Part shown: one piece after another, positions 1-8,027 of the stretch
Layout of the letters: each line of letters begins with the position of its first letter
Position numbering within the stretch: the first letter of the stretch is position 1
Virus record (IMG/VR): IMGVR_UViG_2537562091_000006
Length of the DNA stretch: 8,027 nucleotides
Direction: 5' to 3' (one strand)
From: a virus
Taxonomy: Duplodnaviria > Heunggongvirae > Uroviricota > Caudoviricetes
The notes under the pieces: generated by a model
Told to the model about the DNA's origin: nothing
Database searches by the model: none
What the model saw: only the letters and a program-made list of their open reading frames with translations
Position numbers and translations under genes: made by a program

Positions 1-144
1 TTAATTTCGATTATTTTTCCCGGATGGAAAATTCTTAGAAACCGATCACATACAGCTGCATTTATTAAGGTTATCATCCGTTTCGCTGAAAAACATAACC
101 CATAAAATGCTAGCTGTACCAGGAACCACCTCCTTAGCCTGTGT

Positions 145-171
145 AATCTCCCTTACACGGGCTTATTTTTT
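145..171. other. Phage attachment-site core, P2 type (attP or prophage att junction)
   Basis: Plus strand reads AATCTCCCTTACACGGGCTTATTTTTT; its reverse complement AAAAAATAAGCCCGTGTAAGGGAGATT matches the 27-nt P2 att core as I remember it. Position immediately beyond ogr fits P2 organisation (ogr-att). Recalled from memory, not searched. Confidence 0.55.
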
Positions 172-235
172 ACGCGTAATACAATGAAATAAAAGGATTT
201 ATTTCTGGTCACGTCCACACATTGACCACATCGAC

Positions 236-272: not shown

Positions 273-491
273 TTACATCCACATAATTTGCTGCCCTGAC
301 GGCAACGGGTGCGGTCTAACGGCGTGGACTTCTCCCGGCTTCACGATGTATCGCTGTACCGACTCATAAGTGATGAACGTGGCGCTGCAATTCACGTTCT
401 GACACTGGTGATAACGCTCTTTTGTCGTGTCAGTGATATAGCGACTTGTACGCGCATGTGCGGCATGCTGGCATAAAGGACAATGAAACAT
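273..491 (-). CDS. ogr: Ogr late transcription activator, zinc-finger protein (72 aa)
   Basis: Translation MFHCPLCQHAAHARTSRYITDTTKERYHQCQNVNCSATF... has the Cys4 motif C-x2-C-x22-C-x4-C and the 72-aa length of P2 Ogr. Start chosen at the internal Met (codon 45 of the 116-aa track ORF) because GGAAGAGG lies about 8 nt upstream and the longer ORF would overlap D by 50 nt. Confidence 0.85.
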   Translation of the reverse strand: MFHCPLCQHAAHARTSRYITDTTKERYHQCQNVNCSATFITYESVQRYIVKPGEVHAVRPHPLPSGQQIMWM

Positions 492-525
492 CGCGAGCAC
501 CTCTTCCGGTTTTGTTGATGGTGCC

Positions 526-554
526 ATTTTAGTTAATTTATCCTTATAAAACAA
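526..554 (-). promoter_or_regulatory. Putative sigma70 promoter for ogr
   Basis: Minus strand TTGTTT (549-554) - 17 nt - TAAAAT (526-531) in the AT-rich 82-bp D-ogr gap, about 35 nt upstream of the ogr ATG. Prediction by eye only. Confidence 0.3.
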
Positions 555-573
555 ACAGATAAAATAAAACAGA

Positions 574-1737
574 TCACTCATTATCTTCTGTTTCGTACTC
601 CACATCAGAAAGCCTGACCTCAAGCTCTAAGGACGTCGTGAAGCCGCTATTATTCAGAAAATGTGTCACCTTAGTGATTGTCCAGTTCTGCTCGTCTATG
701 ACGCGCTTAAAGCCTGACACTTTGACCGGCGTTTCCGTGTAAATATCTGCACGACCGGTAGCCAGGATGATGGAGAACTCCGCAACGCCCCGTTGCAGTT
801 TATCCCACTTCGCCTGAGCGGCGCGCATGGCCTGCGCTTTTGTGGCATATACCGTAGTCAGGGCAAAAACGTTGTCAGCTTCACCGGCCATGTATTCACC
901 TTCGCGCGCTTCAGGTACTTTTGGCGCTTTCTTCTGCGTGACTGGTTTTGCTTTCGGGTGCTCCAGTGCACGCAGGTGTTTTTCTTTCTTTTTGCGTTTC
1001 AGTTTTACCTTCTGCTTTTGTGGTTTCGGGTCTTTGGTGTGTAACCACTTTGCCGTTACGCCGGTATAGGCTCCACGGTCAGCAATCGCAAAATGATGAC
1101 GGTCGCCGTCGCTGCGGGTGATGGTAATCTGCGGGATTTTTTTACCGCTGGCCGTCACCCCCTGCCCCGCTTTGAGAAACAGCAGTTTTCCCATTTTTAC
1201 CGACACCTCGCCGCCGTTGCGTTCAGCAAGACGGGTCAGGAATTTCAAATCGGACTCCTGCGACTGGTCGATGTGCGGGATTTTAATTCCGGCCAGTGAC
1301 GGAGCGACACTGGCTTCCAGCTTATTACGGGAGGCTATCGCCTCAACAATCGCACCGAGCGTGGTGTCATGCCATGAGCCTTCACGGCGGGAATTGAGCG
1401 TCCCGCGAAAATCTGCACTCCGGGCGCGGATGGTGACCACATCCGGTGCGCCCCGGTGTTCAACCTCATCAACGGTAAATTTCCCTTTGCATACCAGGGC
1501 AAAACCTTTCCAGCCGATATACACCGTCAGGACAGCGCCACGAACCGGCAGCCCGACCTGCCCGTCGGCATCGTTCAGTTCAATATCAAGCTGGTCAGCC
1601 TCAAAGCCCCGGTTATCCGTCAGGGTCATGCTCATCAGACGGTCGCTGATATTGCCGGTAATATCCCTGCTGTCGAGCATCAGCATGTAATCCGGCGTCA
1701 GCGTACTGCCTGCATCAAATGTCAGCGCATCCAGCAT
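574..1737 (-). CDS. D: Tail protein D (phage late control D family, 387 aa)
   Basis: 387-aa ORF in the position and with the length of P2 gpD, between U and ogr. Start ATG overlaps the U stop (TAATG). Contains a Lys-rich low-complexity stretch at residues ~235-278. Confidence 0.85.
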   Translation of the reverse strand: MLDALTFDAGSTLTPDYMLMLDSRDITGNISDRLMSMTLTDNRGFEADQLDIELNDADGQVGLPVRGAVLTVYIGWKGFALVCKGKFTVDEVEHRGAPDVVTIRARSADFRGTLNSRREGSWHDTTLGAIVEAIASRNKLEASVAPSLAGIKIPHIDQSQESDLKFLTRLAERNGGEVSVKMGKLLFLKAGQGVTASGKKIPQITITRSDGDRHHFAIADRGAYTGVTAKWLHTKDPKPQKQKVKLKRKKKEKHLRALEHPKAKPVTQKKAPKVPEAREGEYMAGEADNVFALTTVYATKAQAMRAAQAKWDKLQRGVAEFSIILATGRADIYTETPVKVSGFKRVIDEQNWTITKVTHFLNNSGFTTSLELEVRLSDVEYETEDNE

Positions 1738-2216
1738 TATCCCGCCTCCGTCATACCCGTGAATCTGGTCGCCATACTGCCAGCCTTACCGATGAGCGAC
1801 TCCGCCTGTTTACCGATATCGCCATAAAGCGCGGCCAGTGATTCATCCACGCGGGTGAGCGACAGCGTAAAATCAATTTTCCGGGGTGTGCCGTCTGCAA
1901 AGAAAATACTCCCTGTTTCACTCACCCTGCTGATGACATACATGCCGTAAATCATGCCGGAGCCATCCAGCAACGGCCACGCCCGGCCTTCCTCTGCCAT
2001 CAGTCTGAGCGTGGTCATCGTCAGCTTGCCGCCGGTCAGTTCGGGATAAAGCACACCGGCAAGCGTGATGTTTTCCTCGCCAACACCGAGAAACTGAAAG
2101 GCATCCCGTTTACCGATACGGGAATTTGACGGCCAGCGATAATCTGATTCACGCTGCATGGTCTGGTGTGGCAGCGTCTGGCGCATAAAAACAAACATAC
2201 CTAACGCGAGCATCAT
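1737..2216 (-). CDS. U: Tail protein U (159 aa)
   Basis: 159-aa ORF matching P2 gpU in length and position. AAGGAGGTG Shine-Dalgarno sits just upstream of the start at 2216. Stop overlaps the D start. Confidence 0.85.
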   Translation of the reverse strand: MMLALGMFVFMRQTLPHQTMQRESDYRWPSNSRIGKRDAFQFLGVGEENITLAGVLYPELTGGKLTMTTLRLMAEEGRAWPLLDGSGMIYGMYVISRVSETGSIFFADGTPRKIDFTLSLTRVDESLAALYGDIGKQAESLIGKAGSMATRFTGMTEAG

Positions 2217-2230
2217 TTTTCGTCACCTCC

Positions 2231-4678
2231 TTAACCGTCATGCATCATGCTGGCACGGGCGCGCGCACGTTTATCCCGCTCGTATTTTTCGAGCGCATCC
2301 TGTAACTGGCGGTCAAGCTGTGTCCCCGGCGCAGTACCACCCGTCAGGCTGATGTGATATTCGTTTTTACTCTGGTCCACATAAGAGCGGCCAGCCGGTG
2401 CCGTGACCGGCTGATAAGCCTGATAGCCTGCATAAGAGCTGGTCGCCGGAATATAACCACCGGTGCCATACGTGGCGGCATGAGTTCTGGCGGCGGTCTG
2501 GTCAAGTGTGTCTGACTCTTTGTTGATGACCCCGAGCTTTTCCAGTACCCAGTCAATACCGCTGCGCAGTTTGTTGAACGCATTAAGCGGCAGCATCAGC
2601 GCGTCAGCCAGTGCCTGCCCGAACATGACGCCCGTGTCACGGCAACGGTTCAGGGTGTCCTGTGTGGCTTTGACCGGGGCAATCAGGTTTTTAAACCACT
2701 GCCACGCGGCCTGTAACTTTTCGCCCAGCCAGTCAAACACCGGTTTCAGTGGCGTGAACAGCTCCCCCACCGGCGCAAATGCCGCTTTCAGCCCTTCCAC
2801 CACACCGCCAAAGAATGCGCTGACAGGCTCCCAGTATTTACGGATAAGCAACGCCCCGGCGACAATGGCGGCCACCACGGCCACAACCGGCCAGCTAATC
2901 GCCCCGATGGCCGTCATAACAGCACTGCCAACCGTCATGAAGATTGCCCCCATTGCGCCTGCTGCCGCGATAATGGCATTAATGCCGGTGATAACCGGCC
3001 ATGCTACAAGACCAATGGCACCGATGATGCCAATAAGCGCCAGCGCGCCACCGACAATGAGGCCGATGGTTGACGCCAGTGATTTGTTTTTCTGGATCCA
3101 GCCGTCGAGTTTTAACACATACTTTGTGGCCGTCTGAGTGAGTTTACGCAGTGCGCCTTCCTGCTGGTCAAACAGGTCTGTCCCCACCGCCTCATAAGCG
3201 GACTGAAACTCCTTAAAGTCACCGCCGAGGTTGTCCTGCATGATATTTACCAGCTCGGCGGTCTTCCCGTCTGAGGCTTTAAACGCAGCGGTCAGTTTGT
3301 CCAGCTTTCCGGTTGAGGCGGCAGTCATCAGCACGGCGGCGGCTGAGCTGGCCTCCTCCCCGAAAATGGTTTTCATGTATTCAGCCTGCTGGGCAGTACC
3401 GAGCCGATTTTTCTCAAAACTGGCCTGCATTTCTTTCAGAATGGTAAATATTGGTCGGGTGTTTCCCTTGCTGTCTGAGGTTTTCACACCAAGCTCTTTC
3501 AGTGCATCCCATGCTTTTCCCGTCGGTGCCTGCAGGCGGCTTAACACGGCACGGCTTCCCGTCCCCGCCATTGAACCGGTAATTTTTGCATCATGCAGCG
3601 CCCCGACCATTGCGGCGGTTTCTTCAATGCTGACACCGGCATTTTTTGCCACAGGTGCGGCATAGGTCAGCGCATCGCTCATGCCGTCAAAATCGGCGGC
3701 GGTTTTGTTCATCGTCATGGAGAGAACATCCCCGATATGAGCGACCTTATCGTTTGAAAGCTGAAAGGCGGATTTCATCCCCATCAACAGGGCGGCGTTT
3801 TCTTCCATCGTGCGACGGTTCGCCAGCGCCATATTCAGCGTGACCGGCGTTGCCGCCTGAATGGCATCAACATCCCCACCGGCTTTCGCAATGATAATCT
3901 GCGCACCGGCTGCATCATCCGCCGAGGCGGCGGTGTTGTCGCCGAGCTGGCGCGCCTGTTTGCGTAATGCGGCCATTTCGGCGGAGTCTTTTGCCGCACC
4001 GAGCACAGCCTGCAATTCTGAGTTTTTCTGCGCAAACTCATAACCGGGCATCAGCAGCTTAACTCCGGCCATCGTTCCCGCAGCAGCTATCCCCACACCG
4101 GCAGCGCCCACTGAGGCCATATTTCCGGCCAGTTCCTTTCCGGCCTGATAACGCTGTTTTACTGCGTTAAGTTTTGCCTGTTGTGCACTGACACGCGCCA
4201 GTGCGTCACGCTGACGGTTAAGCTGTGCGGTGGTTTCACTGATACGGTTTTTCAGTCCCTGCTCATCATGTGCAAGATTGCGGGTATTAATTCCCACAGC
4301 GGCCAGTTCCCGCTGCTGGCGTTTAACGGAGTCCGTCAGGCGGTTATATTTCGCCTGTAAGTCCTCCGCCGCACGCTTTGCGGATTCCAGCACTTTCGCC
4401 TGAGCACGGGTCGGACGTTCGGTGTTTTTAAACTGTGTGGCAAGGGCTTCGGCCTCCTGCCGTGCCTTTTCAAGTGCATGACCAGTCACGGCGAGCTGTG
4501 CACTGGTCTTGCGAAATCCCTCAATACGGGATGCCTGACCGTTCAGCTCGCGCAGTGATTTTTGTGTTTCCCGGATATCCCCCGACAGCGATTTGCTCGC
4601 TGTGCGGATGGATTTAAACGGGCGGGATGCCTGGTCAACAGCCCTGAGCAATACCTGTAATTTTACATTGTTACTCAT
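2231..4678 (-). CDS. T: Tail tape measure protein T (815 aa)
   Basis: 815-aa ORF, the P2 gpT length. N-terminal ~190 residues are Q/R/A/E/L-rich (coiled-coil-like), followed by a long Gly/Ala/Ile-rich hydrophobic block (residues ~534-616). ATG at 4676-4678 overlaps the E+E' stop. Lies directly after the frameshifted chaperone pair, the typical tape-measure position. Confidence 0.9.
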   Translation of the reverse strand: MSNNVKLQVLLRAVDQASRPFKSIRTASKSLSGDIRETQKSLRELNGQASRIEGFRKTSAQLAVTGHALEKARQEAEALATQFKNTERPTRAQAKVLESAKRAAEDLQAKYNRLTDSVKRQQRELAAVGINTRNLAHDEQGLKNRISETTAQLNRQRDALARVSAQQAKLNAVKQRYQAGKELAGNMASVGAAGVGIAAAGTMAGVKLLMPGYEFAQKNSELQAVLGAAKDSAEMAALRKQARQLGDNTAASADDAAGAQIIIAKAGGDVDAIQAATPVTLNMALANRRTMEENAALLMGMKSAFQLSNDKVAHIGDVLSMTMNKTAADFDGMSDALTYAAPVAKNAGVSIEETAAMVGALHDAKITGSMAGTGSRAVLSRLQAPTGKAWDALKELGVKTSDSKGNTRPIFTILKEMQASFEKNRLGTAQQAEYMKTIFGEEASSAAAVLMTAASTGKLDKLTAAFKASDGKTAELVNIMQDNLGGDFKEFQSAYEAVGTDLFDQQEGALRKLTQTATKYVLKLDGWIQKNKSLASTIGLIVGGALALIGIIGAIGLVAWPVITGINAIIAAAGAMGAIFMTVGSAVMTAIGAISWPVVAVVAAIVAGALLIRKYWEPVSAFFGGVVEGLKAAFAPVGELFTPLKPVFDWLGEKLQAAWQWFKNLIAPVKATQDTLNRCRDTGVMFGQALADALMLPLNAFNKLRSGIDWVLEKLGVINKESDTLDQTAARTHAATYGTGGYIPATSSYAGYQAYQPVTAPAGRSYVDQSKNEYHISLTGGTAPGTQLDRQLQDALEKYERDKRARARASMMHDG

Positions 4679-5098
4679 TCGTGTTTCCGCTTCGCCGGAG
4701 CGCCTTTTCGCGCCATGTGATGAGTTCGGTCAGGCTCATGGGATACAGTTCTGATGGCGGCCAGTGAAATATCACTGCCACATCCGCCATCAGGTCATCG
4801 ACCGAGAGATTTTTCGGAAACGTCACTGCACCGAGTTCGGCGACAAAAAACCGACCACCTTACCGGCCAGCGCCACAAGGTCAGGCAGTTCCAGTGCGGC
4901 GACTTCCTGCTCGGTCAGCATCGGTGCAGTCATGCGCGGCAGCACCTTAATCAGTGCATCGACTTCGGAGTTCGCGACCGCAGCCAGACTGACACCGCGC
5001 AGCGTCCCGGCGTTAGGTTTCATCAGCGTGACCTGTTCGATAACCTGCTCACCACGTTTGACCGGATTGTCCAGGGTAATGACGTTTTCTTTGTTCAT
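4671..5098 (-). CDS. Tail assembly chaperone E+E' (142 aa, made by -1 programmed frameshift at 4844-4850)
   Basis: After a -1 shift on T TTT TTG the minus strand reads ...VAELGAVTFPKNLSVDDLMADVAVIFHWPPSELYPMSLTELITWREKALRRSGNTNE* with stop TAA at 4671-4673, overlapping the T start. 85 + 57 = 142 aa, the P2 E+E' length. The -1 frame is open for exactly this stretch. Confidence 0.8.
4823..5098 (-). CDS. E: Tail assembly chaperone E (91 aa, zero-frame product)
   Basis: 91-aa ORF ending ...AGKVVGFLSPNSVQ*, located between FII and T as in P2. Contains the slippery heptamer near its 3' end. Confidence 0.85.
   Translation of the reverse strand: MNKENVITLDNPVKRGEQVIEQVTLMKPNAGTLRGVSLAAVANSEVDALIKVLPRMTAPMLTEQEVAALELPDLVALAGKVVGFLSPNSVQ
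4844..4850 (-). other. -1 programmed ribosomal frameshift slippery heptamer (T TTT TTG)
   Basis: Minus strand GGT TTT TTG in the E zero frame (plus strand CAAAAAA at 4844-4850), 8 codons before the E stop. It is exactly where the E' reading frame opens. Confidence 0.8.
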
Positions 5099-5126
5099 GG
5101 TTTTCTCACTTCTGAATCGGGGTTAA

Positions 5127-5147
5127 CCGGTCAGCCAGGCTGACCGG
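5127..5147 (-). promoter_or_regulatory. GC-rich perfect hairpin in the FII-E intergenic region (possible attenuator or mRNA processing/stability element)
   Basis: CCGGTCAGCC-A-GGCTGACCGG is a perfect 10-bp inverted repeat in the 56-bp gap between the FII stop (5155) and the E start (5098). No U-tract follows on the transcribed strand, so it is not a canonical intrinsic terminator. Confidence 0.4.
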
Positions 5148-5154
5148 ATGAAAA

Positions 5155-5673
5155 TCACAGGCCGATATTGCGGCGGTGTTGCTCCAGCCGGTCGACGCCG
5201 TTCACCTTCTCAATCATGTTGATGGTGTCAATTTCGACCAGCTCCTTACCGTCCATCGTCAGCCGGAAATAGGTGCAGACCACGGAGATTTTCGACTCGG
5301 TGTCTTCTCCCTGTTTACCCTCGCCGGTGTCGATTTCTTTCTGACGTCCACGCATGACCACCTCGACGGCCACCGTTTCGCCGGTATCGTCACGCTGGTA
5401 AGAGCCTGCAAAACGAATCGGTACGGCATCCACACCGGTTGCGGCGTAAAGTTCCCAGATAACCGAATCCGGGAAGCCCCCGAGCGACCACTCCATTGAC
5501 AGCGCATCGTCATCAAGGCCGAGGTCTACCGGTGCGCTGCCGTTCATCCCCGCACCGCGATAGTTTTCGAGCTTACGGGTCAGTTTTGGCAGCGTGACGG
5601 ACTTTGCAACGCCCTGATAGCTGTAGCCGTTCAGAAAGACGTTCATTAACTTGAGTTTGCGCGGCATTGCCAT
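5155..5673 (-). CDS. FII: Tail tube protein FII (172 aa)
   Basis: 172-aa ORF directly downstream of the sheath gene, with the P2 gpFII length. AAGGAG Shine-Dalgarno precedes the ATG at 5673. Confidence 0.85.
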   Translation of the reverse strand: MAMPRKLKLMNVFLNGYSYQGVAKSVTLPKLTRKLENYRGAGMNGSAPVDLGLDDDALSMEWSLGGFPDSVIWELYAATGVDAVPIRFAGSYQRDDTGETVAVEVVMRGRQKEIDTGEGKQGEDTESKISVVCTYFRLTMDGKELVEIDTINMIEKVNGVDRLEQHRRNIGL

Positions 5674-5685
5674 CGGTCAGGCTCC

Positions 5686-6876
5686 TTAATTGCTGTTAAC
5701 CGAGGTGACCAGATTTGCCAGGTATTTATCGGTAATACGCTGGCGCAGGGTCAGGTTTTCAAGAGGAGGCACCGGTGTATAGTCGTAGTCGATATACAGT
5801 TTTCCGGCCTTGAGGGTTTCCGCATCGTTGGATTCTTCGCTGAACCAGCAGGTCGCATCCACGATATAGCCGTTTGTTTTCAGCTCACGGAATTTGGCAT
5901 TGATGCCGTCAACAATGTCGCGAATCAGCGTTGCGGTGATGGGCTTGTCCACCGCCCACATGTGCGCCTCAGCCATCGTGTCGGCCAGCACCTGCGCGGT
6001 GCGGGTGTAGTTTTCAAAGAGGAACAGCGGGTCATCAGAGCAGGTACGGTTACCCCAGAAGCGGAAACCGTCGCGGCGAATCAGCGTTGTGACGCCTGAC
6101 TCGTTAAGCAGGTCAGCATCGGTGCCGGACTCCTGCAAATCCCAGAATACAGATGCGCTGATACCGGTAGCACCGTTTACCCCGACGTTGGACAGCGTTT
6201 TATGCCAGCCCTGCTCCTGGTCGATTTTAGCGCGCAGACCCAGCGCACGGGCAGTGGCATACGCGGTGGCGGTGGTACTGGTGACCGTATCCCATGCGAG
6301 GAAATCCGGCCAGATGACCATCAGCTCACGCTGGCTGAAATTCTGGCGGTAGGCTTTCACCTCGGAAATGGTCTTACAGCCCCATGCGCTGATATATCCG
6401 AAAGCGCGCAGCTTCTGACAGACGGATGCCAGTGCAACAGCCACCTCTTTGGTATCCAGTCCCGGCACACCGAGAATACGCGGTTTAACACCGGTTACCG
6501 ACTCCGCCGCCAGCAGGGCTTTCAGTCCGGTGTACTGACCGTTTTCGTCGGTGGTGCCGATGATATTGGAAACGGTCTGCGCGAGTTTCGTTTCCTCGTC
6601 ATCACCGGTGCCGTCTTCCACGCGCACGACAACGGTGACCGGTTTTGACTGGTCAGCGATGGCCTGCAACGATGCCGCCAGCGTGCCTTTTTTACCGGCC
6701 TTTGCAATTGCGCTCTGCACATTGGTAATCAGCACAGGTTTATTGAGGGGGAAGGTTTCCGCATCCGCATCGCTGGCCGTGCAGACCATGCCGACAATGG
6801 CAGTGGATACGGTGGAAATGACGCGGGTGCCGTCGTTAATCTCCAGCACCTGCACGCCGTGATGATAGTCACTCAT
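5686..6876 (-). CDS. FI: Contractile tail sheath protein FI (396 aa)
   Basis: 396-aa ORF (P2 gpFI length) at the head of the FI-FII-E-T-U-D operon. GGAG lies about 10 nt upstream of the ATG. Confidence 0.85.
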   Translation of the reverse strand: MSDYHHGVQVLEINDGTRVISTVSTAIVGMVCTASDADAETFPLNKPVLITNVQSAIAKAGKKGTLAASLQAIADQSKPVTVVVRVEDGTGDDEETKLAQTVSNIIGTTDENGQYTGLKALLAAESVTGVKPRILGVPGLDTKEVAVALASVCQKLRAFGYISAWGCKTISEVKAYRQNFSQRELMVIWPDFLAWDTVTSTTATAYATARALGLRAKIDQEQGWHKTLSNVGVNGATGISASVFWDLQESGTDADLLNESGVTTLIRRDGFRFWGNRTCSDDPLFLFENYTRTAQVLADTMAEAHMWAVDKPITATLIRDIVDGINAKFRELKTNGYIVDATCWFSEESNDAETLKAGKLYIDYDYTPVPPLENLTLRQRITDKYLANLVTSVNSN

Positions 6877-6935
6877 CCGTTTAACTCCGTGGTTAATGGG
6901 TGAGTGATATTTTCAGTTGTGCCGGAGATGTCAGG

Positions 6936-7529
6936 CTATTTGTCCCGGTTGGCTAAGGGATGACACAATTTATTTTTTGTCACGGAGGCGGGGAATTTTT
7001 TATAGAGCGTGGACAGGCCAATATCAAAAATCAGTGCCACGCGTTGACGTGATTCCCCTGCAGCCAGCAAACGCCCGGCCTGCTCCCACTCACTCGCGGT
7101 GAGTTTCGGACGTCTGCCACCAATACGACCTTTGGCTCTGGCCGCTTCCAGTCCGGCGCGTGTCCGCTCGACAATGAGTTCTCGTTCCATTTCGGCCAGG
7201 GCACCCATCACATGAAAGAAAAAACGCCCCATCGGCGTGCTGGTATCAATAGCATCCGTCAGGCTGCGAAAATTAACGCCGCGTTCGCGCAGCTCCTCAA
7301 CCAGAATGACCAGATGCCGCATACTACGCCCCAGCCGGTCCAGCTTCCAGACTACCAGTGTATCCCCCTCCGATAATGTCCTGAGCAGTTTTTTCAGTCC
7401 CGGCCTGTCGGACTTCGTGCCGCTGATTTTGTCCTCAAAAATCAGCTCACATCCTGCGCACTCCAGCGCGTTACGCTGCAATTCCGTATTCTGGTCATTT
7501 GTTGACACGCGTACATAGCCAATAAGCAT
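6936..7529 (-). CDS. Serine DNA invertase, Hin/Gin/Cin/Pin family (site-specific recombinase, resolvase/invertase fold)
   Basis: N-terminus MLIGYVRVSTNDQNTELQRNAL carries the catalytic-Ser motif, followed by DTLVVWKLDRLGRS, MGRFFFHVMGALAEMERELIVERT and a C-terminal HTH (GLSTLYKKF); about 197 aa. Strong resemblance to Hin/Gin. Start taken at the second ATG (7529), which has GGGGG about 6 nt upstream; the track ORF starts 2 codons earlier at 7535. Confidence 0.85.
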   Translation of the reverse strand: MLIGYVRVSTNDQNTELQRNALECAGCELIFEDKISGTKSDRPGLKKLLRTLSEGDTLVVWKLDRLGRSMRHLVILVEELRERGVNFRSLTDAIDTSTPMGRFFFHVMGALAEMERELIVERTRAGLEAARAKGRIGGRRPKLTASEWEQAGRLLAAGESRQRVALIFDIGLSTLYKKFPASVTKNKLCHPLANRDK

Positions 7530-7556
7530 GAGCATCCCCCTGAATAAAAACCGGAG

Positions 7557-8027
7557 ATGATGCCAGTTGCCCGTTATCTCTGCATTTTCATAAACGTTGG
7601 TTTGGGAGAAGGTTCGGCATTACCCGTTGGCGTGCCTGTTCCGTGGCCTTCCGCCACTCCGCCAACAGGCTGGCTGAAATGCAACGGGGCGGCTTTTTCT
7701 GCTGAAGAATACCCGGAACTGGCAAAGGTTTACCCGACAAATAAATTGCCTGATTTACGCGGTGAGTTTATTAGGGGCTGGGATGACGGGCGTGGTATTG
7801 ATGCTGTACGTGCCTTGCTAAGTCTTCAGAATGGAGGAGTGGAATCACACACCCACCAAGGGCAGCTCTTCAGAGTTAGTGATTATCGTACAAAAGAATA
7901 CCAGCATCAGAAGTTATGGGGAAGAGGATATATTGCAAGCCTGACGCCGGGTGCTGATAGCCCACTTGATTTTGATGATTATTCTGTATCTTCTAATCCA
8001 AATGATATTTTGTCGGAATCAGAGTAA
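7557..8027 (+). CDS. Tail-fibre C-terminal variable segment (Sv'-like alternative exon of an invertible segment), probably silent in this orientation
   Basis: Translation contains LPVGVPVPWPSATPPTGWLKCNGAAFSAEEYPELAKVYP...PDLRGEFIRGWDDGRGIDAVRALLSLQNGGVESHTHQ, the conserved junction motif of Mu S / P1 S / lambda Stf-type tail-fibre C-terminal domains. The crossover site sits within its first codons, it has no convincing RBS, and it is on the strand opposite the late genes. The annotated ATG at 7557 is probably not a true start. Confidence 0.65.
   Translation: MMPVARYLCIFINVGLGEGSALPVGVPVPWPSATPPTGWLKCNGAAFSAEEYPELAKVYPTNKLPDLRGEFIRGWDDGRGIDAVRALLSLQNGGVESHTHQGQLFRVSDYRTKEYQHQKLWGRGYIASLTPGADSPLDFDDYSVSSNPNDILSESE
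7585..7610. other. 26-bp invertase crossover site (hix/gix/cix-like)
   Basis: TTTTCATAAACG TT GGTTTGGGAGAA: two imperfect inverted 12-bp half-sites (TTnTCnnAAAC) around a central TT/AA dinucleotide. Close to the gix/hix/cix sequences as I recall them. Lies 56 bp upstream of the invertase start and inside the 5' end of the tail-fibre segment ORF. Confidence 0.7.

Follow-up and report, generated by a model that had tools for sequence, protein, structure and literature searches.

Does the 26-bp site beside the invertase gene of this viral DNA act as the crossover point of a tail-fibre inversion switch and, if so, which part of the fibre changes when the DNA inverts? The stretch analysed here (the window) is 8,027 nucleotides long. 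A sequence-only reading had placed the site inside an open reading frame (ORF) at the junction between the constant and variable parts of a fibre gene, and had proposed that inversion would splice a different C-terminus onto the fibre in frame, in the manner of Mu S/S′.

The 26-bp site and the genes around it

The site lies between an invertase gene on the minus strand and a plus-strand ORF (7557–8027) that reads away from the invertase, in the following arrangement:

7585–7610, no strand given: crossover site, invertase-proximal copy, 26 bp in a 12-2-12 design
7597–7598, no strand given: central dinucleotide TT, the presumed point of staggered cleavage and strand exchange
6936–7529, minus strand: serine DNA invertase with Resolvase and HTH_7 domains, 197 aa from MLIGY (longest ORF from 7535)
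7557–7597, plus strand: in-frame leader MMPVARYLCIFINV, outside the invertible segment and overlapping the invertase upstream region
7598–8027, plus strand: silent alternative C-terminal tail-fibre cassette with a Collar domain, homologous to e14 StfE

The 26-mer reads TTTTCATAAACGTTGGTTTGGGAGAA, that is TTTTCATAAACG-TT-GGTTTGGGAGAA, and is present as a single copy in the window even when up to three mismatches are tolerated, with 0.00 copies expected from 200 shuffles. It is also the window's sole match to the Din-family 12-2-12 pattern TTNTCNNAAACCNNGGTTTNNGANAA, with one mismatch (G rather than C at position 12); the same pattern, when scanned in Mu, P1 and the K-12 e14 region, recovered gixL/R, cixL/R and both e14 sites. 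Aligned with the known Din sites, the reverse complement of the window site, TTCTCCCAAACC-AA-CGTTTATGAAAA, is identical at 26 of 26 positions to pixR of prophage e14, which is listed as TTCTCCCAAACC AA CGTTTATGAAAA in a published table of Din sites (PMC3241671). The pinE-proximal e14 site of E. coli K-12 (L005, 4606–4631) is likewise the exact reverse complement of the window site, and the repeat given for the e14 P segment, TTGGTTTGGGAGAAGG (PMC12529663), equals window positions 7597–7612.

Within the ORF the site is read in the codons TT-TTC-ATA-AAC-GTT-GGT-TTG-GGA-GAA, which give (I)FINVGLGE and are followed by GSALPVGVPVPWPS; the sequence-only reading was correct in describing a 26-bp site that codes for IFINVGLGE just ahead of a fibre motif, and this arrangement occurs once in the window. 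Residues 25–72 of the ORF match the Pfam Collar domain (PF07484, E=2e-15), the match starting at the GSALPVGVPVPWPS stretch. The assignment of this point to the constant/variable junction does not hold: since just nine codons precede the site, the ORF is without a constant fibre part, and the window copy is the invertase-proximal site that heads the silent cassette. Nor can IFINV be taken for fibre sequence. The nine pre-site codons and IFINV are a spacer between the cassette and the invertase, and only GLGE onward becomes fibre. In the orientation of the window, the Collar cassette (7598–8027) is the unexpressed copy parked beside the invertase. For annotation, this means that the 156-aa ‘tail fiber protein’ ORF beside the invertase is a promoterless alternative cassette and not a full gene, and that the expressed fibre depends on the orientation of the segment, which matters for host-range prediction and for locus assembly. 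PGAP labels such leader-plus-cassette ORFs as tail fibre proteins. The ATG-CCA leader itself, (M)MP(F/V/L)x(R/C)Y.., stands in frame just outside the segment and is kept in 39 distinct upstream variants; an equivalent ATG also exists in e14 and in Mu, the leader of Mu occupying the same place.

When the right half-site is reverse-complemented, it mismatches the left one at 4 of 12 positions, as had been reported. The inner half, GGTTTGGGAGAA, codes for GLGE and is common to the partner sites, and we attribute the difference of the outer half, TTTTCATAAACG, to its never being exchanged and to its freedom from fibre-coding constraint. In Hin and Gin, the asymmetry of the central dinucleotide and the topology of the invertasome give a site its polarity. 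On this established knowledge we rejected the half-site asymmetry as a determinant of directionality, a role that the sequence-only reading had suggested for it; the polarity comes from the central dinucleotide, TT here and AA in the partner on the same strand.

The centre of the site lies 68 bp upstream of the invertase start (MLIGY, 7529), a start common to PinE, Gin and Cin. The invertase is encoded by an intact ORF; its catalytic Ser stands in GYVRVSTNDQ, and it has Pfam matches to PF00239 (Resolvase, E=2e-52) and PF02796 (HTH_7, E=6e-13). The protein is 87% identical to PinE, 80% to Gin and 81% to Cin, and is colinear with the Gin structure PDB 3uj3 over residues 1–182 (E=9e-95). The EWEQAGRLL helix with its Fis-contact residues and the helix-B stretch DRPGLKKLLRTL both align with Gin; in Hin, the Fis/enhancer contacts are Gln151, Arg154 and Leu155 (PMC3798978). 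Relative to PinE (184 aa), the invertase carries a C-terminal extension of ∼13 aa (ending in VTKNKLCHPLANRDK; window 6936–6980, minus strand), which is also found in the CUPS04 protein. A simple scan found no sigma-70-like promoter around the site on either strand, and none for the invertase. The invertase strand also carries a terminator-like hairpin (AACTGG...CCGGTT, then TTTTAT; 7549–7568, minus strand) in the stretch that separates the crossover site from the start of the invertase gene; it could curb read-through into that gene from the fibre operon.

The 5′ part of the invertase gene is probably a recombinational enhancer with two Fis sites, for which the candidate elements are:

7440–7511, minus strand: probable recombinational enhancer, equivalent to cin nt 19–90
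7493–7507, minus strand: proximal Fis-consensus core TGTCAACAAATGACC, invertase nt 23–37
7445–7459, minus strand: distal Fis-consensus core GCGCAGGATGTGAGC, invertase nt 71–85

The Fis consensus that we used is a degenerate motif of 15 bp, reportedly due to Finkel and Johnson in 1992. Fis sites had been expected early in the invertase gene, and two predicted cores turn up there, at nt 23–37 and 71–85; both match the degenerate pattern KNNYRNNWNNYRNNM and they are spaced by exactly 48 bp. This pair is the sole one with 48-bp spacing in the 8-kb window, while shuffling the first 200 nt yields one in just 30 of 5000 cases. In a gap-free alignment of the 5′ ends of four genes (the window invertase, pinE, gin and cin), the pair is kept in all of them; it falls within the enhancer region annotated in the P1 record, which places the Cin enhancer at cin nt 19–90, aligning with window 7511–7440. 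The centre of the proximal core is ∼97 bp from the centre of the crossover site, and the corresponding distance from hixL to the first Fis site is roughly 100 bp (PMC3798978). Features of the Fis motif described elsewhere (PMC4784862) agree with the 15-bp consensus.

The window further carries, on its minus strand, the P2 tail gene order FI-FII-E/E′-T-U-D-ogr with matching families:

574–6876, minus strand: P2-type tail module overall, from Pfam matches and colinearity
within 273–623, minus strand: Ogr/Delta zinc-finger protein (Pfam)
574–1737, minus strand: D (GpD; Pfam)
1737–2216, minus strand: U (GpU; Pfam)
2231–4678, minus strand: tape measure T (Pfam)
4671–5098, minus strand: E′ and E (Pfam GpE and tail assembly chaperone E)
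5155–5673, minus strand: tube FII (Pfam)
5686–6876, minus strand: sheath FI (Pfam)

The window is colinear with phage pro483 and with the prophage of E. coli CUPS04, and the element that carries the site is, judged by its sequence, a P2-like (Peduovirus) prophage. The overlapping minus-strand ORFs Phage_TAC_7 (4823–5098) and Phage_P2_GpE (4671–4826) have the layout expected of the P2 E/E+E′ frameshift pair. Beyond the ogr-like gene, window positions 1–183 do not resemble the DNA that flanks the CUPS04 prophage on its fieF side; this unlike left flank suggests that the integration site or the prophage end differs in the source genome.

Partner site, reading frame and inversion in related prophages

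The window ends at 8027 with one Din-type site inside it; the constant part of H, and the partner site with it, lie farther to the right. The partner-site and frame tests were run on relatives that are 96–98% identical to the window, the closest full-length ones being the CUPS04 prophage (98.4% identity over 6800–8024) and phage pro483. Both have the order invertase, silent cassette, tfa, opposed tfa′, H and I. The CUPS04 prophage (L001) has sites at 7786–7811 and 9613–9638, the latter reading TGCTCTTAAACCAAGGTATGCGAGAA, and pro483 (L002) has sites at 7438–7463 and 9341–9366, the latter reading TTCTCCCAAACCAAGGTATGCGAGAA; in each case the second site is inside H. Since the site in H has AA at its centre on the plus strand, as opposed to the TT of the proximal site, the two sites are inverted. 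They share the same codon phase, each starting at codon position 2.

When inversion was simulated, H went from 378 to 442 aa in the CUPS04 prophage and from 400 to 439 aa in pro483, in frame in both cases and with fusions that read ...GLLAYLGLGEGSALPVGVPVPWPS... across the junction. The partner site sought by the sequence-only reading is thus found in the relatives, inside H and inverted, with the fusions in frame, and each version of the fibre (378 or 442 aa in CUPS04/JKHS016, 400 or 439 aa in pro483) is followed by a tfa gene. We additionally searched with a 700-nt query in which the constant part of H and the window cassette were joined as predicted. This junction was found as contiguous sequence in E. 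coli genomes, the best being JKHS016 with 100% coverage and 98.4% identity. Simulation and the JKHS016 junctions, both from relatives, agree with the proposal that inversion fuses a different fibre C-terminus in frame, in the way of Mu S/S′.

The JKHS016 and CUPS04 prophages share the same protein accessions for the recombinase and the assembly, sheath and tape-measure proteins, and they are colinear in their flanks at 98.3–99.9% identity, while the middle 1832 bp are reverse-complemented at 99.9% identity. In JKHS016, H has 442 aa and a 116-aa gp53-like ORF adjoins the invertase. The breakpoints between the two prophages overlap TTGGTTT and AAACCAAGGT, within the cores of the two sites, and the hybrid sites of JKHS016 are exactly those predicted by the simulated inversion. 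The window itself, compared with JKHS016, passes from colinear to inverted at 7597–7603 (TTGGTTT). The comparison of CUPS04 and JKHS016 indicates that the ∼1.83-kb segment inverts in nature. Inversion has been measured experimentally in e14 and, by sequencing, in P2-like prophages of EPEC (PMC4272514). A shufflon-like system with multiple inversions was considered and rejected, as CUPS04 and pro483 show just two sites even at four mismatches. A repeat search found no long inverted repeats around the segment beyond the short sites, as expected for the Din family.

A probable Pin-type fibre switch and its alternatives

We read the 26-bp site, with high confidence, as the invertase-proximal pixR equivalent of a Pin-type, Fis/enhancer-dependent tail-fibre inversion switch in a P2-like prophage. 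The steps of such a switch follow the established Hin/Gin paradigm. Dimers of the invertase would bind the site at 7585–7610 and its partner ∼1.83 kb rightward, inside H and past the window end, and two Fis dimers would occupy the enhancer early in the invertase gene; on supercoiled DNA, the two crossover sites and the enhancer would come together in an invertasome. There, each of the four strands would be broken at the central TT/AA, staggered by 2 nt, the overhangs giving the sites their polarity, and one pair of subunits would turn by 180° before the ends are religated. The segment, as seen in the relatives, holds two opposed pairs, each with a fibre C-terminal cassette and its cognate assembly gene, and its inversion joins the ∼271-codon constant part of H in frame to either C-terminus. 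The analysis itself shows what the site is, which genes surround it, that the frame is kept and that both orientations occur in nature. Fis dependence and the cleavage chemistry we infer by analogy with the known systems, and by the same analogy inversion would probably change host range.

The sequence of the cassette raises the question of whether the switch still works in this particular prophage. Against CUPS04 and an IMG/VR contig with the same cassette, homopolymer runs of the window show single-base indels at four positions (7896, 7918, 8003 and 8014), all of them in its last 130 nt; none falls across 562–7895 (7.3 kb). In 129 E. coli genomes that carry the cassette, these indels are absent. 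Together they shift the frame, which leads to a TAA at 8025–8027 and to the loss of the conserved NETRPRNIAFNYIVRAA end. If the indels are real and not sequencing errors, inversion here would give a defective fibre, and one could then suppose that the site and the invertase are inherited relics of a switch that no longer inverts or has no working alternative fibre, the cassette being a decaying pseudogene. Private, frameshifting changes that remove a conserved C-terminal motif are what such a relic would show; yet their bunching at the end of the window and their position in homopolymer runs suggest read or assembly error of the kind typical of contig ends, the invertase gene is uninterrupted and encodes both the catalytic serine and the DNA-binding domain, the site is canonical at 26 of 26 positions, and near-identical prophages occur in both orientations. 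We regard a relic as very unlikely, and the four indels as probably low-quality sequence at the contig end or else the decay of a silent cassette.

The ORF at 7557–8027 could also be expressed in its own right, as a protein of the StfE type made of the leader and the parked cassette, in which case the site would toggle two products, one of them serving the host. This reading adds to the fibre switch and does not replace it. It draws on e14, where the invertase-proximal chimeric ORF StfE2, with a gp53-like domain, is reported to block T2 adsorption (PMC12529663, 2025), on its counterpart in the flipped P2-like prophage, where a 116-aa gp53-like protein shares the leader, and on the persistence of the in-frame ATG-CCA leader across the 39 upstream variants and, without a shift in position, in Mu. 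Against this, the leader overlaps the invertase upstream region, and its conservation may serve the invertase instead; its residues 4–6 vary by missense changes, a simple scan found no promoter-like site on the plus strand, and the flipped-orientation protein is weakly similar to StfE2 outside the leader and the final IGY. We consider expression of the ORF itself unlikely. By the same token it is improbable that the proximal ORF is a real gene and that a complete P2-like prophage toggles both its fibre tip and a lysogen-protecting, receptor-masking protein. Finally, the 26-mer might have no role in recombination at all, being either a chance imperfect palindrome or a mere operator of the divergent invertase gene. 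Its place 68 bp upstream of the invertase start would allow invertase binding to autoregulate the gene, but 0.00 copies are expected by chance, the sequence is identical to an experimentally defined crossover site, and natural inversion breakpoints map within the 26-mer, which contradicts this explanation and leaves it with a negligible probability.

Relation to known inversion systems

We assign the system behind the preferred reading, a Pin-type fibre switch, to the Din family (Hin/Gin/Cin/Pin), where its sequence puts it closest to e14 Pin. The mechanism is already known: this is an ordinary Din-family tail-fibre switch, with nothing new mechanistically. Invertase-bearing P2-like prophages are also already represented, both by annotated phages such as pro483 and by the EPEC work (PMC4272514). 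In pro483 the site, the invertase and the gene order are the same as in the window, and pro483 and the P2-like prophages of EPEC E2348/69 differ only in cassette content and by a few percent divergence.

The Pin/P-segment system of e14 (pixL/pixR, pinE, stfP-tfaP / tfaE-stfE) matches the window in its 26-bp site (26/26) and, at 87%, in its invertase. Its layout is the same, with the constant part, a site, a cassette with tfa, an opposed tfa′ with cassette′, a second site, and an invertase transcribed away from the segment, and the distance between the crossover points is 1827 bp in both e14 and CUPS04. StfE of e14 is nearly identical to the first ∼80 residues of the silent cassette, and at the DNA level CUPS04 and e14 are 87–88% identical over the 5′ part of the invertase gene, the site, the cassette head and the tfaE-like gene. 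The two differ in that e14 is a lambdoid remnant, whereas the element described here, a P2-like myovirus prophage, has a complete tail module and, as its constant part, a P2-type H. In addition, the distal site of the P2-like relatives has GGTATGCGAGAA as its outer half in place of the e14 pixL half, the second cassette differs from that of e14, and the invertase is ∼13 aa longer at its C-terminus than PinE.

The Gin/G-segment system of Mu (gixL/gixR, S-U / U′-S′) has the same mechanism and architecture with an invertase that is 80% identical. Fis-consensus cores lie at the same gene positions in gin, and in Mu, too, the crossover site is in frame inside the fibre gene. The gix sites differ from the window site in their central GA and at several other positions, and the Mu cassettes are different and longer. 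The Cin/C-segment system of P1 (cixL/cixR), with an invertase 81% identical, has the central dinucleotide AA/TT as here, and the outer half of cixR (GGTATTGGATAA) resembles the distal-site outer half of the P2-like relatives (GGTATGCGAGAA). In P1, cin is transcribed toward the segment and cixL overlaps the 3′ end of cin, whereas in the window the invertase gene has its site upstream. Hin of Salmonella, with its H segment (hixL/hixR), belongs to the same enzyme subfamily and uses the same 26-bp site design, with a Fis distance of about 100 bp compared with ∼97 bp here. In contrast to Hin, which flips a promoter that controls flagellin genes, the segment flipped here is coding and its inversion exchanges the C-termini of proteins.

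Outside this prophage the exact 26-mer is present in at least 120 IMG/VR contigs. Across the 120 exact-site occurrences analysed (IMG/VR and other loci, plus the window), the peptide heads behind it are of 43 different kinds, among them the Collar-type GSALPVGVPVPWPS, AAKRNVGTG... and LSLAGTASG.... That the 26-mer is joined to at least 43 cassette heads suggests that it may serve as a common joint for the exchange of fibre tips among E. coli phages, an idea that is already established. Several contigs start or stop no more than ∼50 nt from the site, perhaps because assembly broke at a segment of mixed orientation. One e14-like element (L069, 8243–9034; IMG/VR UViG_2681813166_000002) has a cassette of the window type in the expressed position, within a 263-aa fibre that reads through the pixL-type site CTCTCGAAAACCTTGGTTTGGGAGAA; its presence there indicates that the cassette circulates between lambdoid-remnant and P2-like elements.
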